NCBI GenBank assembly: GCA_020833005.1
Contig: JAJHRD010000003.1
Span: 63,567-127,566 of the forward strand
Reading direction: 5' to 3'
Length of the DNA: 64,000 nucleotides
Source of the DNA: Thermoproteota archaeon
Lineage (GTDB): Archaea; Thermoproteota; Methanomethylicia; Culexarchaeales; Culexarchaeaceae
The position numbers were made by a program, and so were the translations under genes. Positions 1,608-53,090 of the stretch are shown here, piece by piece. Position 1 is the stretch's first letter; the number at the start of each line of letters is the position of its first letter. The notes under the pieces are model-generated. The model was given only the letters and a program-made list of their open reading frames with translations. It had not been told where the DNA came from and made no database searches.

Positions 1608-3587
1608 TCATAAACCGAAAAGGAAGGTTAAAACAATATTTGTAACCCACCCAGCCAAAACTGAAATCGCTATGGTGGACAAAGAGATTAAAGTAGCCCT
1701 CCTCCAACCCTCCTCCCTCACACATGCAGCTATAGTGGCAACACATGGAATGAAAAACATAACAACCACCGTGAATACAAGCATCTGCTTCACACTTAAA
1801 ACTAAATTAAGATCACTGGATCCAATAACTTCTTGAAGCAGTATTAATGCAAGCTCCTTCCTAAGAATTCCAAATATTAATGGGAAAGCCGTTACAGCTG
1901 GCAATCCAAGCAATCCGGTTATTAATGGTGAAGCATAATATGATATCAATGGAACCATATTCAATTGGTATATGGTTTCAAGTATGACGCTACCAGCAAC
2001 TATTAATGGTGAAGCTTCATAAATGAATCCTTTAACCCTATGCCAAGTCTTTAAAAGAACAGCCTTCAAAACTGGTTTACGATAATCAGGCATCTCCATA
2101 ATTAAACCCACAGGGCAACCTGGTAGAAGCCTATTTAGAGCATACCCAAACAAAACTATCACAATAATGTTGATTAGATACAGCATCAACGCGTATGTGA
2201 AGCCAATATATTTACCAACAATTCCAAGTATAACCACAGTCCTAGCACTACACGGAATTAAAACCACTAGAAAGCTTAGTAGAAGCTTTTCACGATCACT
2301 CTCCATAATTCTACAACCCAAGCATGCTGGAACATTACATCCATAACCAAGCATTAATGGCAGGAAAGCCTTACCATGCAATCCAATCCTATGCATGAAT
2401 GCATCCATGAGATATGCTGCCCTAGGCATATATCCAGTATCTTCAAGTATCGATAGGATGAAGTAGAAGGGTAGGATATATGGTAGAGAGATTGTGAGTG
2501 TCGCTATCAATCCACCAAAGAAACCATTAATCACAATATTAGAGATTGTTTCAGGGAGGATGCCTGAAATAATCCCAGAAATCCAAGGCATTAAATTCTC
2601 ATCAAAAATGTAGCTTAAAGCGTCCTCCAATAATCTTCCGCCAGTGAAAATTGCATAGAAGATTGTTAGGAAGACTAGTATGAGTATTGGATAACCGAGT
2701 ATTGGATGCGTAGTCCAGTAATTCAATTTATCTGAGAATGTCCGTGATATTGGTGCTCTCTCAATGAATTGAACCTTTGGCAATATATCCCTACTTATGA
2801 TGCTATAACGCTCAGAGGATATTATTGAAGATATCTTCTCACCATGTATACGCTCCAATTCATCCACAAACTCCTGAACTAATAGTATTATAATTCTGCC
2901 ATTCTCCAAGCTTTCAACCATCTTCAAAACGTTTTCATCACCCTCAAGGAGCTTTATGGCAAGCCATCTAGGAGGATATTTGGAGCATAATTGGGGGAGA
3001 TACTTCTTAATAGACTCAGATAATATGGAAATCTTCTCTTCAACCTCCCTACCATACTTAAACTTTGTGGGTGAAACTTTTACACGCCCCTCAACAAAAT
3101 CAATGATTGTTTTAACAAGGACATCTATACCGCGACCAGTAACTGCAACCATAGGTATAACGGGGACTCCAAGAATCTTGCTCAATTCATCAACATCTAT
3201 CCTTATACCCTTACTCTGAGCCACATCCATTAAATTTAATGCCACAATTACTGGAGCTTCAAGCTCAAACAATTGTATTGTCAAATATAAATTCCTCTCT
3301 AAAACGGAGGCATCGACAACATTGACAACGACATCAGATTCCCTTGAAAGAATATACTCCCTAGCAATAACCTCCTCCTCAGAATACGATGATAGGGAAT
3401 ATGTTCCTGGAAGATCAACAACGTTTATTTCATAATCTCCATAAATTAATCTCCCCTCAGCCTTCTCCACAGTTTTCCCAGGCCAATTCCCAACAATTTG
3501 ACTACCACCAACAAGGCTATTGAATATTACACTTTTACCAACATTTGGCTGCCCAGCTAAGGCAACATTAATCTTCCTCTCAACCAT
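1608..3587 (-). CDS. feoB: Ferrous iron transporter FeoB (N-terminal GTPase plus polytopic membrane domain)
   Basis: G1 motif GQPNVGKS and further G-protein motifs, followed by a long hydrophobic permease domain. 659 aa is typical for FeoB. Downstream of a feoA-domain/dtxR gene pair on the same strand. Confidence 0.9.
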   Translation of the reverse strand: MVERKINVALAGQPNVGKSVIFNSLVGGSQIVGNWPGKTVEKAEGRLIYGDYEINVVDLPGTYSLSSYSEEEVIAREYILSRESDVVVNVVDASVLERNLYLTIQLFELEAPVIVALNLMDVAQSKGIRIDVDELSKILGVPVIPMVAVTGRGIDVLVKTIIDFVEGRVKVSPTKFKYGREVEEKISILSESIKKYLPQLCSKYPPRWLAIKLLEGDENVLKMVESLENGRIIILLVQEFVDELERIHGEKISSIISSERYSIISRDILPKVQFIERAPISRTFSDKLNYWTTHPILGYPILILVFLTIFYAIFTGGRLLEDALSYIFDENLMPWISGIISGILPETISNIVINGFFGGLIATLTISLPYILPFYFILSILEDTGYMPRAAYLMDAFMHRIGLHGKAFLPLMLGYGCNVPACLGCRIMESDREKLLLSFLVVLIPCSARTVVILGIVGKYIGFTYALMLYLINIIVIVLFGYALNRLLPGCPVGLIMEMPDYRKPVLKAVLLKTWHRVKGFIYEASPLIVAGSVILETIYQLNMVPLISYYASPLITGLLGLPAVTAFPLIFGILRKELALILLQEVIGSSDLNLVLSVKQMLVFTVVVMFFIPCVATIAACVREEGWRRATLISLSTIAISVLAGWVTNIVLTFLFGL

Positions 3588-3594
3588 TATAATT

Positions 3595-4188
3595 TCACCT
3601 TAACCTCTTAACATAAATTCTGGATGCTATACCCCTACCTAGGGCAATCTCATATCCCCTAACCTTCAACACTATGGGTCCACCTAGGGAGGCTATGGAT
3701 GCAACTTCAAACTCAATTCCAGGCGTTAAACCCAAGTCAGATAGTCTTCTCAGCATCCCATGCCCTCCAACAGCATATATGAATATACCCCTCTCCCCCC
3801 TACGGAGGTTAGTGAGCGGTTCAACTTCATCAATGTTCCCATCAAACTTTGATAGAAAGCTCCTTAATGACTTCAAATCTTCATCACTTAAATCATGACC
3901 ATACTTTAAATGTTCACCCACACCAGAGTATAAGCTACTAACACCATATCCACCATGAATCAACTTATCATGTATGAATGCCTGCCTATATTTTAAAATG
4001 AACTCCCTCCCAGAATCTGTTAAATTTAAACCATCACTTGAAATTAAACCCCTTTCACGAGCCAACTTCAAAACATCCTCCAAAAAATTTATAGGAACAC
4101 CAAGTCTCTTCGAAACCTCATCTAAAGTTACCTTTCCACCAGAAAGGGATATTGAATATATGGTTTCCAAGATTTTAGGCATTAACAT
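3595..4188 (-). CDS. DtxR-like winged-helix protein with C-terminal FeoA (SH3-like) domain; start probably at an internal Met (ORF open to 4260)
   Basis: N-terminal HTH ILETIYSISLSGGKVTLDEVSKRLGV...GLI resembles the DtxR N-terminal domain. The C-terminus GIFIYAVGGHGMLRRLSDLGLTPGIEFEV...KVRG matches the FeoA/SH3-like fold. The longer ORF would overlap the upstream dtxR by 40 nt. Confidence 0.6.
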   Translation of the reverse strand: MLMPKILETIYSISLSGGKVTLDEVSKRLGVPINFLEDVLKLARERGLISSDGLNLTDSGREFILKYRQAFIHDKLIHGGYGVSSLYSGVGEHLKYGHDLSDEDLKSLRSFLSKFDGNIDEVEPLTNLRRGERGIFIYAVGGHGMLRRLSDLGLTPGIEFEVASIASLGGPIVLKVRGYEIALGRGIASRIYVKRLR

Positions 4189-4220
4189 TTCTATTAATGA
4201 GGAATCGTAACCCAACTTGA

Positions 4221-4691
4221 TCAACCCTCCTCCAATGGGCATTTCCCACCATACAAGCAAACATTATTACATGGGAGCGGAGCGCCATGCGGGCAACGTG
4301 AAGGTATTTTTAAAGCCTTACATATCTTGACAACACTACTATCATTAACATAATGCTCTAAAGAGCATATTTCAGATGCAACATCCTCATCAATATTGAA
4401 GTTGAGGAGATACCCATACAGACACTCCAAAATCTCCCTCTTAAGGATATATTTAAAGGCAATATTTTCACCAGCTTTAGTTAACATTACACCCCTATAT
4501 GGAACATAATTGCATAAACCCATATCACTAAGCCTCCTAACAGCTTCAGAAACCGTGGAATTTGAAACTTTAAGGTAATTGGCTATACTGGAATTATCAA
4601 CCAAACCATCACTACTAGATTTAACCAAATTGTATATGGCAACTAGATAATCCTCAATCCTCCTATGCTTTAAACCATCAGACATAACCAA
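4221..4691 (-). CDS. DtxR/MntR-family metal-dependent transcriptional repressor with Cys-rich C-terminus
   Basis: HRRIEDYLVAIYNL...STVSEAVRRLSDMGL...MLTKAG...REILECLY follows the DtxR family pattern, plus a C-terminal Cys cluster. First gene of the feo operon. Confidence 0.75.
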   Translation of the reverse strand: MVMSDGLKHRRIEDYLVAIYNLVKSSSDGLVDNSSIANYLKVSNSTVSEAVRRLSDMGLCNYVPYRGVMLTKAGENIAFKYILKREILECLYGYLLNFNIDEDVASEICSLEHYVNDSSVVKICKALKIPSRCPHGAPLPCNNVCLYGGKCPLEEG

Positions 4692-4746
4692 ACCTAATCA
4701 TTGCATATAGAATTAATATAGATTTCGGTTATACGAAAAACAGTGA

Positions 4747-4764
4747 AAAAATTAATATTAATTT
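4747..4764. promoter_or_regulatory. Perfect 18-bp palindrome AAAATTAATATTAATTTT in the dtxR-feo operon promoter region; candidate metalloregulator operator
   Basis: Read directly from the sequence, 55-75 nt upstream of the dtxR start (minus strand). A second partial copy AAAATTAATTT lies about 25 nt away. Confidence 0.35.
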
Positions 4765-4781
4765 TCTGAAATATTGAAAAA

Positions 4782-6365
4782 TTAATTTAACATAATCATT
4801 TCATAATGCAACTTTCCATCCTTCATACTAAAGCATATCCTCTTCAACCAAGCATCAGATTCATTTGGAAAATCAGATCTATAATGCGCCCCCCTACTCT
4901 CTTCACGAATGAGACTTGAAGTTGCAACCACCGAGGATACTAGGAGCATATTCTTAAGTTCGAAGAGCTTTAAAGCATCAAACTTGGATTTCACGATAGC
5001 ATCCTCAACTTTAACATTTAATTCATCAATGATTTTGAGTAGATCCCTTAAACGGCTACCATTACGAATAACTCCACAATACTTCCACATGCTATGTTTC
5101 AATTCAAATCTTAAATTATCGATGTCGTAAGATCCAAGTGAAGATTTATTGAGCATCCTCTGAAGATTTTGAATAGTTTCATTGCAATCCACCTTAGAAA
5201 TTTTAGATGTTAATGCATATTTTGAAGCTGAAGCTCCAGCCCTTGCGCCGAAAACTATGGTTTCCGTGAGTGCATTACCGCCAAGTCTATTGGCACCATG
5301 AACACCACCACAAACCTCACCACAAGCATAAAGCCCAGGTATACCGGTACTGCAATTCTCATCAATAAGTATGCCACCCATAGTGAAATGGGCTGTGGGA
5401 GCTACTCTAAATCTACTACCACTCAAACCCAGAACTCTTATTAGATGTATTGAAGAATCTGGCATAACAGTTGATGGATCTTTATCCCCAATATCCATTA
5501 TTAGAGAATCATCGAATCCAAGACCATCATCTATCTCCTTAAACAAAGCCCTCGAAAATAGGTCTCTATCTTCAACAATTATCCTCCCAAGAGGCTTGTT
5601 AAAATTATATTTGAGGACAACATCTTCGCCAGCTCTATTAATTATTTTGGCATCATATGCTGGGAAAAGCCATGGCGGCTTCCCCTCCTCAGCTAAACCC
5701 AATGGGAAGAATTGCGTGAACTCCATATCCACAAGTTTAGCTCCAGCTTTCAAAGCCATGGCGCAACCATCACCAGAAACCCTAACCGGATTATCGCTTC
5801 TCAAGAATATCTGACTATACCCACCAGTTGAAAGCACAATGGATTTTGAGTAGATTGGTATTATCTTGCCGGAGGGGATTTGAAAAGCTATTAAACCATG
5901 AACTCCATAATCATCCACCATTAGATCTAAGGCCATGAAATTTTCAAGGAAAGTGACGCCAATCTTCTTGGCATAATCGCTTAAGGGCTTTATCAATCCA
6001 AGCCCAGCAGTTATAGGTCCATCAGTAACACTTGCACCCCCATTTCTAATGTTTAAGTTAACTCCAAAATCTCTTAATTCAAGTAGCCTACTTGGAGCTT
6101 CCTCCACCAAGACTTTAACTAAGTTACGATCGTTTATCATTCTACCTCCATGGAGGGTGTCTTTGAAATGGTTTTCCTTGGTATAGGATCCGAAGGCAGC
6201 TCTAAATCCTCCACCAACATATAGGGTGCATGAGGAAGCACCTATTGGAGCCTTAGAAATTAACATAACATTTAAACCCATCTTCCTAGCCTCTATGGAA
6301 GCTCTAAGACCAGCTGCACCGCCACCAATAATTAAAACATCAGTTTCTGGAATACTGCTCACCAA
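4782..6365 (-). CDS. FAD-dependent oxidoreductase of the L-aspartate oxidase / fumarate reductase flavoprotein family (NadB-like; no covalent-FAD His motif seen)
   Basis: N-terminal dinucleotide-binding motif DVLIIGGGAAGLRAS. The C-terminal RGAHYRSDFP capping region is typical of NadB/SdhA-like flavoproteins. Confidence 0.65.
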   Translation of the reverse strand: MVSSIPETDVLIIGGGAAGLRASIEARKMGLNVMLISKAPIGASSCTLYVGGGFRAAFGSYTKENHFKDTLHGGRMINDRNLVKVLVEEAPSRLLELRDFGVNLNIRNGGASVTDGPITAGLGLIKPLSDYAKKIGVTFLENFMALDLMVDDYGVHGLIAFQIPSGKIIPIYSKSIVLSTGGYSQIFLRSDNPVRVSGDGCAMALKAGAKLVDMEFTQFFPLGLAEEGKPPWLFPAYDAKIINRAGEDVVLKYNFNKPLGRIIVEDRDLFSRALFKEIDDGLGFDDSLIMDIGDKDPSTVMPDSSIHLIRVLGLSGSRFRVAPTAHFTMGGILIDENCSTGIPGLYACGEVCGGVHGANRLGGNALTETIVFGARAGASASKYALTSKISKVDCNETIQNLQRMLNKSSLGSYDIDNLRFELKHSMWKYCGVIRNGSRLRDLLKIIDELNVKVEDAIVKSKFDALKLFELKNMLLVSSVVATSSLIREESRGAHYRSDFPNESDAWLKRICFSMKDGKLHYEMIMLN

Positions 6366-9707: not shown

Positions 9708-9766
9708 TTGGGAAACTCAACCTCAATTAATATCAATATTACTATAGTTTGTCTGGAAATTAAATT

Positions 9767-11017
9767 TTATGGGTAAACTATCAAGCTCAAAAATATTACC
9801 AGCATAGCTCCAAAGAGGTCTGCAATGGAAGTTTCGAGTGGGATTACGAAGTTATCGGGATCCCAACCCCTACCATAAGCATACACACCAACAACATAGG
9901 AAACAACCATTATGACTATGGAACCTATAAACATAACCAATATGGATAGTAGGATCATGCTCAAAAGTATTGGGACAAGCCCAGTTAAAGTTGCCAAACC
10001 ATATCCGAGCAGGCTATAAATTACACCCATAAATGAAGCTGAGAGGAGCATGCCAAAGAACTCGTTAGACATTACATGTATGGAGGATATCTTGGAATCC
10101 AAGTATCCAAGGGCAAGTTTAGTTGTAGTAACACTACCAAAGGATGAACCAACACCCCCAATAGCATTCAACAAGACAGGGTATATCATGAGAATTTCAG
10201 GGTGATGAACAATGTTCTCAATGAAATTTGCAAGTAGAAGGCCGTTGATCACACCATCAAAACTACATACAAAACCCACTGGAACAGCCTCCCTAACCAC
10301 AACCCTATAAGTTTTCACAAACCTATCAACCCTATAATACCATGTTATTAGAGCAAGCAATGGTATCACTATGAAGAGAAGAGCAGCGATGAGCACAAGG
10401 ATGAGTTGACCACCGAGTATCATAGTTACAGAAGCACTATAGCATAGGGAGACTAGGAAATCATTTAAAATACCCACAACCGGATATGCTATAACATCTG
10501 GATCCAACCCCCTCCTAAAACTTAGAAACGCAGTATAACAATTGAGTGGGAGGGATATGAATGTTGCCAAGACACAAGTGAAGAGGCTTGAAGACATGAA
10601 TTGCGATAAACTCTCCACTGAAACCTGCCCAAAAACGAGGTTGACCAGAAACGCCAATAAACCAATCAAAGATGCATCGATATATGCTAACAAGATGGAA
10701 GCCCTAACCAGAGAGTAGAAATCGACAGTATTACCCCTCCAAGAAGCTTTAACTCTACCAACATTAAGCATTGTTGTCAAATTACCAGTGAAAACACCAC
10801 TTACATCACCCCTAACAGTCAAAACAACTGGATATAAAGCTACAACCCAATGATGCAAAGCCATTATTGGACTTAGTCCTGAAACCACCCTACCTGAAAG
10901 AAGACCTCCACTACTAAAGGATAAAGCAAAGGTACATTGCAGAAAACTTTTCCAAAGAATCCTCTGATTCAACCTCAATGTTGCCCCATAACCATCAAAA
11001 CCTCCAGCAATGCTCAA
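9767..11017 (-). CDS. MgtE/SLC41-family divalent cation transporter membrane domain (two internal repeats)
   Basis: Two repeats carrying the MgtE/SLC41 signature: RGLDPDVIAYPVVGILNDF and RGWDPDNFVIPLETSIADLFGA (the DPDN..P...S..DL motif). About 10 TM helices. Confidence 0.6.
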   Translation of the reverse strand: MSIAGGFDGYGATLRLNQRILWKSFLQCTFALSFSSGGLLSGRVVSGLSPIMALHHWVVALYPVVLTVRGDVSGVFTGNLTTMLNVGRVKASWRGNTVDFYSLVRASILLAYIDASLIGLLAFLVNLVFGQVSVESLSQFMSSSLFTCVLATFISLPLNCYTAFLSFRRGLDPDVIAYPVVGILNDFLVSLCYSASVTMILGGQLILVLIAALLFIVIPLLALITWYYRVDRFVKTYRVVVREAVPVGFVCSFDGVINGLLLANFIENIVHHPEILMIYPVLLNAIGGVGSSFGSVTTTKLALGYLDSKISSIHVMSNEFFGMLLSASFMGVIYSLLGYGLATLTGLVPILLSMILLSILVMFIGSIVIMVVSYVVGVYAYGRGWDPDNFVIPLETSIADLFGAMLVIFLSLIVYP

Positions 11018-24175: not shown

Positions 24176-24850
24176 TTATTGATTCCCAACGTAAACTTCA
24201 ACCTCAACTTCACTTCCATCTACAAGTTTAAGTGCATCCCTAATACTTATTGGAGCTAAAATCTCAATAACATCATCACCATAATGCGTCCTCTCAACTA
24301 GAATTACAGCACAATCAATCCCATCAATCTTAGCTTTAAAGCATTTAGCTCCACCATAACTCCTAACACCATTATAAAAGCCTACTATGGGTATACCAGT
24401 TATAAGCTTCAAAACCTTTTTAACCTCAATATCATGAAACCCCTTCAACTTTAAATTCAAAGTTCCAGGGTAGGGGTCGAAGCCAAGCTTCTCAATGAAC
24501 TGCCTCCTATAATGTGGAATACTCGTATAAAACCTGCCTTCACCAAGACCACTAAAAACTATACCCCTAAACTTCAGTTTATCTGGGAAACTTTCGAAAA
24601 TTCTACCCAAATTTACATATAGCTCCCTCAAAACTTCAGCACCCTTCTCAGTTATCCTAATAATTTGACCCTTACCATATACACTTCTACTTATCAATCC
24701 AAGCTTCTCAAGTTCAATAAGCCACCTGGAAACACTCTGCTGCGATACGCCCATGAGATCCTTCAATTTCGTTGTCTTTATGGGTATTGGACTTCTCAAA
24801 GCTCCCATAAGAGCCAATTGATATAATGTTATGAGCAAACTACCCTTCAT
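24176..24850 (-). CDS. ribK: Archaeal CTP-dependent riboflavin kinase fused to an N-terminal winged-helix DNA-binding domain (RbkR-type)
   Basis: N-terminal HTH VSQQSVSRWLIELEKLGLI. The C-terminus GIVFSGLGEGRFY...PGTLNLKL matches MJ0056-type riboflavin kinase. An internal Met start avoids overlap with the next gene. Confidence 0.7.
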   Translation of the reverse strand: MKGSLLITLYQLALMGALRSPIPIKTTKLKDLMGVSQQSVSRWLIELEKLGLISRSVYGKGQIIRITEKGAEVLRELYVNLGRIFESFPDKLKFRGIVFSGLGEGRFYTSIPHYRRQFIEKLGFDPYPGTLNLKLKGFHDIEVKKVLKLITGIPIVGFYNGVRSYGGAKCFKAKIDGIDCAVILVERTHYGDDVIEILAPISIRDALKLVDGSEVEVEVYVGNQ

Positions 24851-24909
24851 ATACACCACAAAAATAGGTGAAATATTGTTAATATTAATTTTGATTTCAA
24901 ACGCCTTCT

Positions 24910-27414: not shown

Positions 27415-27490
27415 TGGTAGCCGGGGGGAGATTCGAACTCCCGTCGACGGGGCCAAAGCCCGTCATGCTTGGCCGCTACACCACCCGGCT
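27415..27490 (-). tRNA. tRNA-Gln (anticodon UUG), CCA apparently encoded
   Basis: The reverse complement folds into a cloverleaf. Acceptor AGCCGGG/CCCGGCU. T-arm GGGAG-TTCGAAT-CTCCC. Anticodon stem ACGGG/CCCGT with loop CTTTGGC, giving anticodon TTG. GC-rich island in an AT-rich genome. Confidence 0.8.
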
Positions 27491-33828: not shown

Positions 33829-35145
33829 CTATTTACGCTTAGATAAGAATTCTTTAACTATGCTCTTCAATGAGGGGCCTTCAATCTCATTCAATTCAAA
33901 GCTAACCATGGTGGATGGTTTCTTAATGGTGATAAATCTTCTAAGATCCGTGGGGGTTGCTATTATCACACCATCACAATCAGCATTATTTATGGTGGCT
34001 TCAAGTTCACGTAATTGCTTTTCACCATATCCAAGGGCTGGAACTGAGAGTAGATCATTCTTCTCAACAACCTCCCTAATAGATCCAACTGCACAAGACT
34101 TTGGTGAAACAATTTCAGATGCACCAAACTTCCTTGCAGCCACATATCCAGCTCCAAACTTTAAATCTCCATGCAAGAGTGTAGGTCCATCTTCAATGGT
34201 TAATACACGTTTCCCCCTAATTACACTTGGATCATCAACATAAACTTCAGATGTAGCTTTAACTATAATTGCACGTGGATTAAGCCTCCTAACATTCTCC
34301 TCAACCAATTTAACACTCTTCTCATCAGCCACATTAACCTTATTTATGACTATCACATCAGCCATCCTCGCATTAACTTCACCGGGGAAGTACTTGTCTT
34401 CATGACCAGCTCTAAGTGGATCTGCAACGACGATCAATAGGTCAGGCTTGAAGAATGGGAAATCATTATTTCCACCATCCCAAACGATCACATCAGCCTC
34501 AGATTCAGCTCTCCTCAAAATAGCCTCATAATCAACCCCAGCATAAACCACATAACCCCTACGTAAATGGGGTTCATACTCCTCCTTCTCCTCAACGGTA
34601 CAATTGAACCTCTCCAAATCCTCAATCTTCTCAAATCTCTGAACAACTTGAGCTTTAAGATCACCATAGGGCATTGGATGGCGAACTACAACAAACTTAA
34701 CCCCAAAACCCTTAAGAGCATCGCATACCCGCCTCGAAACAGTACTCTTACCAGCACCAGTTCTAATGGCACAAACAGCTATAACTGGCTTACTGGATTT
34801 CAGCATTACATCCCTTGGACCTAGAAGCCTAAAGGATGCACCACAACTCATGGCTATGGAAGCCAGGTGCATGACATGCTCATGGGATACATCGCTATAT
34901 GAAAAGACAACTTCATCAACATTAAACTTCCTAATTAATTCTGGAAGCTCAGATTCAGGATATATTGGTATGCCATTTGGATATAGGGGTCCTGAAAGCT
35001 CTGGAGGGTAAATCCTACCAGCTATACCAGGAATTTGAGTTGCAGTGAAAGCCACAACTCTAAATTCAGGGTTCCCCCTAAAGAAGACATTGAAATTGTG
35101 GAAGTCTCTGCCGGCAGCACCAAGTATTATTACATTCCTAACCAT
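33829..35145 (-). CDS. P-loop protein of the cyclic 2,3-diphosphoglycerate synthetase-like family (Rossmann-like N-domain + Walker A GAGKST)
   Basis: Walker A IRTGAGKST. The size (438 aa) and position next to phosphoglycerate mutase fit the cDPGS/DUF1611-type family. The family assignment is recalled from memory. Confidence 0.35.
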   Translation of the reverse strand: MVRNVIILGAAGRDFHNFNVFFRGNPEFRVVAFTATQIPGIAGRIYPPELSGPLYPNGIPIYPESELPELIRKFNVDEVVFSYSDVSHEHVMHLASIAMSCGASFRLLGPRDVMLKSSKPVIAVCAIRTGAGKSTVSRRVCDALKGFGVKFVVVRHPMPYGDLKAQVVQRFEKIEDLERFNCTVEEKEEYEPHLRRGYVVYAGVDYEAILRRAESEADVIVWDGGNNDFPFFKPDLLIVVADPLRAGHEDKYFPGEVNARMADVIVINKVNVADEKSVKLVEENVRRLNPRAIIVKATSEVYVDDPSVIRGKRVLTIEDGPTLLHGDLKFGAGYVAARKFGASEIVSPKSCAVGSIREVVEKNDLLSVPALGYGEKQLRELEATINNADCDGVIIATPTDLRRFITIKKPSTMVSFELNEIEGPSLKSIVKEFLSKRK

Positions 35146-35252
35146 AACATCACCAACAATAGTAGATGGATTGAAAACATATATGTTTTAGCTTAGATAT
35201 GCTGTGGAAACATTAATAATGATTTAAAGACTAACTATATTTTCGAAGCACT

Positions 35253-50842: not shown

Positions 50843-53090
50843 TTCTATATCTATCCTTCAACTCCTGCTTCTTAGCCATATTCCATCCACTAACATCTTG
50901 ATAATATCCGGTAACCCTACTCCACCACTTAACATTTGATGAACCGCAATTTGGGCATCTATCATTGAGTAGAGGTGATACCGTGGCACAATCGTTGCAT
51001 ATGGTTAGATCTTTCGTGTAAGCGAAATACCCTATCTGAGTTTCAGTGGCGATTTTCTTAGTGACCTTGAATAAGGCTTCAGCATCTGGATAAGCTTCCC
51101 CAAGCCAAACATGAAATATGTTTCCACCAGATAGTAGTGGGAAGAACTTATGCTCAATATCTATCTTCTTAGCCAAAGGAATATTTGCACCAACATAAAC
51201 ATGTGTGCCATTACTATAGTATACGGGGACATCTCTCTCGCCGGAATCAAGCATCTTACGGGCAGCTTCCAAATCCCCCTTAACAACCTTCTTAGCCATA
51301 TCTGAAAATTCTGGTGAAATTAGATCTGCAACTGCAAGTCTCTGTGCACAACTCTCAGCAGGGGTTCTAGCCAATGCAATCTTATAATTAAGCTTAGATT
51401 GCAATTCATCCCTATATTTACGCATAGCTAAGATAACTTTAACCAAGATTTTTACAGCTTCATTAGATTCATGCAATTGATATCCAGTATGCCACTGTGC
51501 CATTTCATTACCCCCAACCAACCCTATCACGAAAACAAGATTATTGAAGTCGACGGCTGGGGGGCCTCTACGACCAGTCTTCAAATCCAATGGTTGCTGT
51601 GTGGCGAAGGGTAAACGTCCATTCTTAATCATAATATCCATCCACTTCAATTTAGCTTTAAATACATCGAAAGCTAGATCCATTAATCTATAAACCTCTT
51701 CAATGAGCTTATCATCATCACCCTTAGCTCTATAAGCAGCTCTTGGGAGATTTAAGCTTACCACTTGCCAAGCACCCATACTGAAGTGTTTGCCATCAAC
51801 GAAATACATTTTATCATTAAACAATGGATCACTATCAGGAGTTTCAGTGAATGAGTATGCACAACACTGATAGCATGAAACACCCTTCCCATACCCCCTA
51901 TATGGTGGTAAAGCATTATCAAAGTATGGGGAGCCAAACTTGGAAACAACCTTATGCACCAGCATCCACTCATCATAATACTCATCCTTAAAGGCTTCAG
52001 GGGTTATATATGTTTCAAGCTTTGGGAAGTTGAAGGGTTTACCCCAATAATCACCTTTCAAAGCAACTTCATATATAGCTCTAAAGAACATTCTAGCCTC
52101 ATCCTCAAAGCTACCATAAGTGTCTTCTCCAATCATCCCCCTATACACAACAGGCTTATCACGCCAAATCTCTGGAATTGTTGGGGAGAGTTGAATGTTG
52201 GAGAAGACGAGTTGCCCACCCCTAGCAACGTAACATTGAGTTAACTCATAAAACATCATTTGAGCCAACTGCTTAATCTCGTCGTAGGATAACCCCTCCA
52301 TAAATGGAGCTAGAAACACATTATAATTGTAGAATCCTTGACCACCAGCAAAGTTTGTTTGAGCTGCAGCTAAAACCTTAACGGAATGGAGTATTGCAAC
52401 TTCAGGATGCTTTGCAGGTCCAGCTACACTGGTTTTGAAGCCAGTTCCATCTGGCATTAATCCATAGTATAGGAAGTATCTCAAATCATGATCTTGACAG
52501 AATGGTCTAGTCCCGAAATACTCTAAATCATGTATGTGTATGTCGCCACGTAGATGGGCATCAGCTATATGTATTGGAAGTAGAAGTAGATACTGCTCCT
52601 TAGAAAGCTTATCAGCCTTCTTCTTATGGGAAGTCTCAGGGTTTGGTTGGAGGTTAGCATTCTCCTTAGCTTCAAATCCAAGTCCAATATCAATTAGATA
52701 TGCATCATAAACTGGGGCTCCAACCCTAGTTAAAACGTTCCTATAAACTATGTATGCAGGCTTATTATTAGACCATTCTAGAAGAATATTGTTTACAACC
52801 TCCCTAATTAGCGGAGCACTAACGAAGAATCCCCCCATACGCTTAATTCTACGTTCAGCCTCCAAAGCTATGGCTTCAGCTTCACTTCTACTTATTGGTG
52901 GGATTCCGAAGAATTCCTCAGCCAATCTAGTTTCATTTAGAAGTTGCTTTACAATCTTAGATCTATCCCAAGGCTCAAAATATCCACTACTAGTTCTAAC
53001 AAGTATTGTTTCATTATTACCATTATCCTTCTTGAAATTTCCTAAGGATTTATCCACCCAACCATTATATCCATTAAGCCAATCCACCAT
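50832..53090 (-). CDS. nrdD: Anaerobic (class III) ribonucleoside-triphosphate reductase NrdD with N-terminal ATP-cone
   Basis: ATP-cone ILVRTSSGYFEPWDRSKI. C-terminal Zn ribbon CNDC...CPNCG. Glycyl-radical motif SRVTGYY at the extreme C-terminus. Confidence 0.9.
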   Translation of the reverse strand: MVDWLNGYNGWVDKSLGNFKKDNGNNETILVRTSSGYFEPWDRSKIVKQLLNETRLAEEFFGIPPISRSEAEAIALEAERRIKRMGGFFVSAPLIREVVNNILLEWSNNKPAYIVYRNVLTRVGAPVYDAYLIDIGLGFEAKENANLQPNPETSHKKKADKLSKEQYLLLLPIHIADAHLRGDIHIHDLEYFGTRPFCQDHDLRYFLYYGLMPDGTGFKTSVAGPAKHPEVAILHSVKVLAAAQTNFAGGQGFYNYNVFLAPFMEGLSYDEIKQLAQMMFYELTQCYVARGGQLVFSNIQLSPTIPEIWRDKPVVYRGMIGEDTYGSFEDEARMFFRAIYEVALKGDYWGKPFNFPKLETYITPEAFKDEYYDEWMLVHKVVSKFGSPYFDNALPPYRGYGKGVSCYQCCAYSFTETPDSDPLFNDKMYFVDGKHFSMGAWQVVSLNLPRAAYRAKGDDDKLIEEVYRLMDLAFDVFKAKLKWMDIMIKNGRLPFATQQPLDLKTGRRGPPAVDFNNLVFVIGLVGGNEMAQWHTGYQLHESNEAVKILVKVILAMRKYRDELQSKLNYKIALARTPAESCAQRLAVADLISPEFSDMAKKVVKGDLEAARKMLDSGERDVPVYYSNGTHVYVGANIPLAKKIDIEHKFFPLLSGGNIFHVWLGEAYPDAEALFKVTKKIATETQIGYFAYTKDLTICNDCATVSPLLNDRCPNCGSSNVKWWSRVTGYYQDVSGWNMAKKQELKDRYRIKL

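Follow-up and report, generated by a model that had tools for sequence, protein, structure and literature searches.

Control of feoAB by DtxR-family regulators that act through palindromic sites in their own promoters is an established kind of regulation in Archaea, and in characterized systems the control of feoAB by this family is repression. Leyn and Rodionov (2015, J Bacteriol 197:451; cited in PMC10783522 and PMC7289023) reportedly described archaeal DtxR-family regulons for ferrous iron uptake, in which a regulator termed 'FetR' controls feoAB, and distinguished ten motif groups. In Archaeoglobus fulgidus, the DtxR-family metal-dependent repressor MDR1, studied by Bell et al. in 1999, is said to autoregulate an operon that also encodes a metal transporter, reportedly by means of three operators downstream of the TATA box whose occupation blocks RNA polymerase recruitment. 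The Haloferax volcanii regulator TroR represses iron uptake when iron is replete. Its motif, TTTAGGC-N3-CCTAAA, is located approximately 100 nt upstream of start codons, often in tandem, and a regulon of 26 genes has been shown experimentally (PMC10783522). The bacterial DtxR/IdeR operator comprises 19 bp and reads TTAGGTTAGCCTAACCTAA (for IdeR, PMC8464063).

The window analyzed here, the whole stretch of 64,000 nucleotides, comes from a Culexarchaeum-like (Methanomethylicia/TACK) archaeon and carries a locus with a comparable set of genes. On the minus strand between positions 11017 and 1608, the gene order is MgtE, two PhoU/TrkA-C proteins, an M24 peptidase, a CN-hydrolase, a FAD flavoprotein, DtxR, a wHTH-FeoA protein, and FeoB. 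The last three are dtxR1 (4221–4685; 154 aa), dtxR2/feoA (3595–4215; 206 aa), and feoB (1608–3587), which encodes the ferrous iron transporter; the gene upstream of them encodes an aspartate oxidase/succinate dehydrogenase-like flavoprotein (4782–6365). An alignment of orthologues places the start of dtxR1 at ATG 4685 and not at TTG 4691. The second gene starts with a TTG 5 nt past the dtxR1 stop codon and has its Shine-Dalgarno sequence, GGAGGAGGG, inside dtxR1. The order dtxR1-dtxR2/feoA-feoB and gaps of 0–8 nt are conserved in all loci, indicating that the three genes form one operon. For comparison, we aligned the upstream regions of orthologous loci in which DtxR is 47–98% identical; among named relatives, Ca. 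Culexarchaeum nevadense (88% identity) and MAGs of Methanomethylicia are the closest. A scan of a genome collection with the DtxR alignment added two close loci (L014 and L015) and one informative distant locus (L016).

Gene 1 matched Pfam families PF01325 (E=1.7e-16) and PF02742 (E=3.3e-12), both above the gathering score. Its homologues of solved structure comprise 8pvt, 5zr4, SloR, ScaR, MntR, and DtxR (E=7e-15 to 1e-9), the DtxR structures 1ddn and 1c0w among them. When the alignment was mapped by inspection, C107, E110, and H111 were found at the positions of C102, E105, and H106 of DtxR, while D12 takes the place of M10, as in MntR. E110 and H111 do not vary among the 8 aligned proteins, nor does C107 among the orthologues. 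At the positions of the ancillary site (H79/E83/H98), the protein has R83, E87, and A103, and thus the histidines are missing. Glu47 occupies the position of Gln43, which contacts bases in DtxR. An SH3 domain was not found in gene 1; in its place, the protein ends in a Cys-rich tail. As two-domain members such as MntR likewise do without SH3, this does not affect the assignment, and on these matches the dtxR1 product is a member of the DtxR/MntR family. The tail (4221–4300, minus strand) has the invariant pattern C131-P-H-G-x-P-L-P-C139-x3-C143-x5-C149, which is kept even in the 47%-identical member, and may provide an extra metal or Fe-S site.

For gene 2, a profile-profile comparison (hhalign) yielded a probability of 98.4% (E=5.8e-15, 192 columns). 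Gene 2 therefore is a very divergent, full-length DtxR paralogue that consists of a wHTH, a helical domain, and a terminal FeoA/SH3 domain. H82, D83, H87, H102, and H107 of this protein are invariant in 7 orthologues. With gene 1 assigned by Pfam and structure matches, gene 2 by this comparison, and gene 3 as FeoB, the dtxR-dtxR/feoA-feoB label of the initial annotation was right, and it is the profile-profile result identifying gene 2 as a DtxR paralogue that makes it so.

The spacer between the stop codon of the flavoprotein gene and the minus-strand operon has a length of 90 nt and is 80% AT. In this spacer, the initial annotation had reported a perfect 18-bp palindrome. The palindrome, AAAATTAATATTAATTTT, is indeed perfect (9+9) and is the longest perfect palindrome of the window, at 4748–4765, one base off from the 4747–4764 first given. 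The dtxR ATG (4685) lies 62 nt downstream of the near end of the palindrome, which spans roughly −55 to −72 relative to the predicted transcription start. A partial second copy, AAAATTAATTT, had also been reported. This sequence is present at 4778–4788; it overlaps the TAA stop codon (4784–4782) and the last codons of the flavoprotein gene and is not kept outside the species. A third look-alike, at 4711–4725, is the TATA-box region. The spacer, which includes a T6 run, probably also carries the oligo-T (T5–T6) signals at which transcription of the upstream flavoprotein gene would terminate. An explanation at the RNA level was rejected: the fold of the spacer had a z-score of −0.10, and no Rfam family matched at the locus. 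The sole match at Rfam gathering level in the window is a tRNA gene at 27418–27490 on the minus strand.

The palindrome had been taken for an autoregulated DtxR/MntR operator that overlaps the TATA box and belongs to a small metal-responsive regulon including the PhoU/TrkA-C-MgtE genes. That it is a perfect dyad of suitable length in a suitable spacer and has a TATA-like core speaks for an operator or an auxiliary site. When the 90-nt spacer was tested alone, a perfect palindrome of this kind was unusual (P=0.003), as it still was when inverted repeats with spacers of 0–8 nt were allowed (P=0.036), and sequences with up to 3 mismatches to AAAATTAATATTAATTTT occurred 3 times in the window versus 0.30 expected. 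Of the other two matches, however, one is located at an rbkR-type gene and one at an FrhB-like gene, neither of which is a metal gene. At the scale of the window, the palindrome is at chance level and is unusual only for the dtxR spacer tested alone: perfect palindromes of at least 18 bp occurred in 66 of 200 (33%) dinucleotide-preserving shuffles of the window, and the core TTAATATTAA with up to 1 mismatch was found 10 times versus 10.7 expected. Such palindromes are thus as frequent in random AT-rich sequence as here. Nor is there an overlap with the core promoter, since the palindrome lies 28 nt upstream of TATATTAA (4720–4713), the predicted TATA box that fits the dtxR start codon. Strains with 98% identical DtxR already break the palindrome: L010, L013, and L086 have AAAATTAATATTAAATTT, and L063 has AAAATTAATATTATATTT. 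In Ca. Culexarchaeum nevadense (88% identity) the palindrome is degraded, in loci at 66–73% identity unrelated AT-rich sequence stands in its place, and in other lineages the inverted-repeat content of the matching segment was no higher than in shuffles (P 0.11–0.97). In contrast, a neighboring dyad is invariant. The site proposed as a second member of the regulon at 9727–9742 is not conserved either, leaving a metal regulon without support. Taken together, these results make it very improbable that the palindrome and its partial copies are the operator, and the 18-bp sequence is best read as part of an AT-rich spacer that is lineage-specific and probably neutral. It is nevertheless likely that the spacer contains an autoregulatory operator, so that the idea of DtxR autoregulation would hold for the spacer and not for the palindrome.

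Extremely improbable is a further reading of the palindrome, by which it serves another regulator, for example of the RbkR type, or as the TATA box of a second promoter. An RbkR-type gene (wHTH and CTP-dependent riboflavin kinase) is located at 24176–24850 on the minus strand, with ThiC and ThyX as conserved neighbors in orthologous loci. Its promoter contains, at 24875–24892, the sole other exact copy of the TTAATATTAA core in the window, which is also the window's second-best match to the palindrome, and RbkR is known to be autoregulated through AT-rich palindromes that vary between lineages, with a site of 16–20 bp conserved within a lineage ahead of rbkR and rib genes (PMC5397151). The site upstream of the window's rbkR is, however, not conserved in the three orthologous loci examined (L143, L145, and L146; 71–76% identity), which keep a generic TATA-like AT-rich box alone, and the dtxR spacer has no flanking riboflavin genes. 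We thus rejected the RbkR operator as the identity of the palindrome. The palindrome's own TATA-like sequence could serve a second promoter, the start of which would then fall within the dyad.

The near-palindrome at 9727–9742, TTAATATCAATATTAC, is present as reported and adjoins the PhoU/TrkA-C pair. The pair does not precede MgtE, as had been stated; MgtE (11017–9767) is the upstream gene, and the site is located between MgtE and the first PhoU/TrkA-C gene. There it occupies the stretch between a conserved TATA-like sequence, CCATAAAATTTAATT, and a GAGGT Shine-Dalgarno sequence, and it is not conserved even in the 98% strain. The spacer between MgtE and the pair keeps a CCATAAAATTT(T)AATT block (9745–9760, minus strand) and a GAGGT/GGAGGT Shine-Dalgarno sequence in all lineages, which suggests an internal promoter for the PhoU/TrkA-C pair. 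Elsewhere in the window, a perfect 16-bp palindrome, AAAACATATATGTTTT, was observed at 35174–35189 in a divergent intergenic region. It is flanked by a gene for a metallochaperone-like GTPase with a CobW/HypB/UreG domain (33829–35145, minus strand) and, from 35253 onwards on the plus strand, by a small ORF and an M14 zinc carboxypeptidase. Its location suits a metal-related operator better than that of the palindrome at 4748–4765.

The element that is conserved in the dtxR spacer is located 9 bp downstream of the palindrome. It is a 17-bp dyad, TTTTCGTATAACCGAAA, on the minus strand at 4739–4723, with the consensus TTTTCGTA-N3-CCGAAA. Its arms, TTTTCG and CGAAAA, are perfect inverted repeats; over 18 bp, symmetry holds at 7 of 9 positions. 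All 11 distinct orthologous upstream sequences, from loci whose DtxR proteins are 47–98% identical, agree at the 14 positions of TTTTCGTA and CCGAAA, and variation is limited to the 3 central bases (TATAAC, TATTAC, TATATC, TACGAC, and TAAAAC). The flanks diverge among the 11 sequences and are scrambled within 60 nt on each side. Since the arms do not vary at all, there is no compensatory change that would prove the symmetry to matter. Each orthologous locus of 8–12 kb contains exactly one copy of the dyad, each time at the dtxR promoter. In the window, TTCG-N6-CGAA occurred twice versus 0.13 expected. The second match (51012–51027) is inside nrdD, which encodes the anaerobic ribonucleotide reductase, and was regarded as a chance occurrence; the 64-kb window contains no second intergenic copy of the dyad. 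The TATAA within the dyad was considered as a TATA box and ruled out, because the center reads TACGAC in Ca. C. nevadense.

A metagenome search for the exact 17-mer TTTTCGTATAACCGAAA returned at least 119 loci. Among the matches listed, only L032, L063, and L086 represent the orthologous promoter; the rest are unrelated and mostly bacterial, and no regulon members were found among them. At L023, L036, L041, and approximately 25 further metagenome loci, the 17-mer is located immediately upstream of a sigma70-like promoter, TTGACT-N17-TATAAT. These represent one bacterial locus that recurs in many gut and other metagenomes, either a coincidence or the site of an unrelated bacterial regulator.

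Directly after the dyad follows the TATA-like box TATATTAA predicted for dtxR (4713–4720, minus strand). All Culexarchaeum/Methanomethylicia loci have a conserved block T(T/A)TAT(T/A)AA upstream of the start codon at a distance of 21–32 nt, at 21 nt in Methanomethylicia and at 27–32 nt in Culexarchaeum. Other genes of the window share the same layout, with an A-rich BRE (GAAA/CGAAA), a TTTATATA-like box, and 21–23 nt to the start codon, a spacing that appears to be the signature of leaderless or short-leader mRNAs. By the same layout, the right arm of the dyad is at the BRE position, and it could be conserved partly as a BRE.

The most divergent dyad-bearing locus, L142 (DtxR 47% identical), has HerA/Mre11/Rad50 as upstream neighbors instead of the flavoprotein gene. 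It nevertheless keeps the dyad, indicating that the element is linked to dtxR and not to the upstream gene. In L142 (5930–5971), a TATA-like box and the ATG are 21 nt apart, and the dyad, TTTTCGTAAAACCGAAA, takes up this interval, which would be the classic position for a repressor. In both layouts the dyad thus touches the predicted core promoter, on the BRE side in the window and between TATA and start in L142. The putative operator appears to have been relocated across the core promoter between the L142 lineage and the others.

All dyad-bearing lineages, L142 among them, keep the gene 1 recognition helix, S-x-S-T-x-(S/T)-E-(A/T)-V. The Desulfurococcales homologue at L016 (39% identity) has a different helix and a different palindrome, TTTAGAC-N2-GTCTAAA, which abuts its own TATA box. 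At this locus (1750–1800), a TTTATAA box comes immediately after TTTAGACGGGTCTAAAC and is followed by a second, partial copy, GAGACGAGTCTAAAC. The L016 motif resembles the TroR motif of H. volcanii (PMC10783522).

On this evidence we assign a probability of roughly 65% to the reading that the palindrome is neutral and the dyad is the autoregulatory operator of a DtxR-family repressor, most likely gene 1. The binding protein, the metal, and the sign of regulation are those that we infer from the DtxR family. A metal-loaded dimer of the regulator would bind the dyad, with Fe2+ as the probable metal because of the feoAB context and the Cys ligand. Since the right arm coincides with the BRE position and immediately precedes TATA (4720–4713), binding there would exclude TFB and TBP, while in the L142 layout the bound dyad would block the recruitment of RNA polymerase. 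With sufficient iron, the short-leader or leaderless dtxR1-dtxR2/feoA-feoB transcript would be switched off. Upon iron limitation, loss of the metal would release the repressor, and Feo uptake as well as the regulators would be induced.

Two alternatives for the dyad are to be weighed against this reading. The dyad may be bound by gene 2 (wHTH-FeoA) or by a hetero-oligomer of both proteins and not by gene 1 alone. Gene 2 and such a mixed complex stay candidates because every lineage with gene 1 and the dyad, even L142, also has gene 2, whose product is a DtxR-family protein of full length that contains a wHTH as well as invariant His and Asp residues. We consider this unlikely, as L142 and the others (37% overall identity in gene 2) differ more in the putative recognition helix of gene 2 than in the helix of gene 1, despite an identical dyad, and as it is gene 1 that keeps the canonical ligands of the primary metal site. 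Rather less probable still is that the dyad recruits TFB, as an activator site or as an extended BRE/promoter element, and is no repressor operator. In archaea, a regulator site on the upstream side of TATA can also mean activation, and in most loci the dyad has exactly this position, immediately upstream of the TATA box, which archaeal activators often use; CGAAA-like BREs precede the TATA boxes of other genes in the window as well. Against this, the left arm TTTTCGTA is equally invariant even though it is outside any BRE, the dyad of L142 is downstream of TATA and covers the start site, a position at which repression is the only plausible effect, and repression is the rule for DtxR-family control of feoAB as set out above.

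Reaching beyond the favored reading of the dyad as a gene 1 operator, we tentatively consider, at clearly lower odds, that the locus represents a tandem DtxR system, so far undescribed, that belongs to uncultured TACK archaea, in which a Cys-tailed two-domain DtxR is paired with the divergent DtxR/FeoA paralogue and which uses a new operator class, TTTTCGTA-N3-CCGAAA. In such a system, the tail CPHG-x-PLPC-x3-C-x5-C might be a binding site for a further metal or for an Fe-S cluster, and the paralogue might supply the SH3 domain in trans. If this is true, moving the operator across TATA could switch the mode of repression between exclusion of TFB and exclusion of RNA polymerase.

With respect to method, a perfect palindrome beside a regulator gene is no evidence of an operator in archaeal spacers of 80% AT; here, phylogenetic footprinting chose an element 9 bp away. 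The analysis yields a specific operator and promoter model for the control of iron uptake in Culexarchaeia/Methanomethylicia, lineages for which, to our knowledge, there is no genetic system, and it brings to light a clade in which short DtxR proteins with a Cys tail are accompanied by a divergent DtxR/FeoA paralogue. One operator shifted across TATA between lineages would, moreover, constitute a small natural experiment on how archaeal repressors function.

Compared with the described systems, the locus resembles FetR in its arrangement: a DtxR-family regulator beside feoAB and a palindromic site of 16–20 bp in its own promoter, which here would make a small, local, autoregulated regulon. It differs from FetR in that a two-domain regulator with a Cys-rich tail is followed by a second, very divergent three-domain paralogue. 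The FetR study reportedly did not cover Culexarchaeia/Methanomethylicia. With TroR, the locus shares an archaeal DtxR-family regulator and a semi-palindromic motif of approximately 17 bp that is T-rich outside and GC inside; half-site and spacing differ, and here there is one predicted site, beside TATA. The resemblance to MDR1 consists in a repressor and a metal transporter encoded in one operon and in an operator, here a predicted one, at the core promoter. Unlike the operators of MDR1, however, the single dyad of the window is on the BRE side, and an MDR1-like downstream position occurs only in the L142 lineage. The bacterial DtxR/IdeR proteins have in common with gene 1 the fold, the Cys/Glu/His ligands of the primary metal site, and a dyad operator, here a candidate one, of approximately 18–19 bp. 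In contrast, the operator sequences are dissimilar, Gln43 is replaced by Glu47, R83 and A103 stand at ancillary-site positions, and SH3 is absent in cis. Judged by these comparisons, the locus would belong to the established archaeal kind, within which it stands out by a half-site of its own and by two regulators in an unusual tandem.
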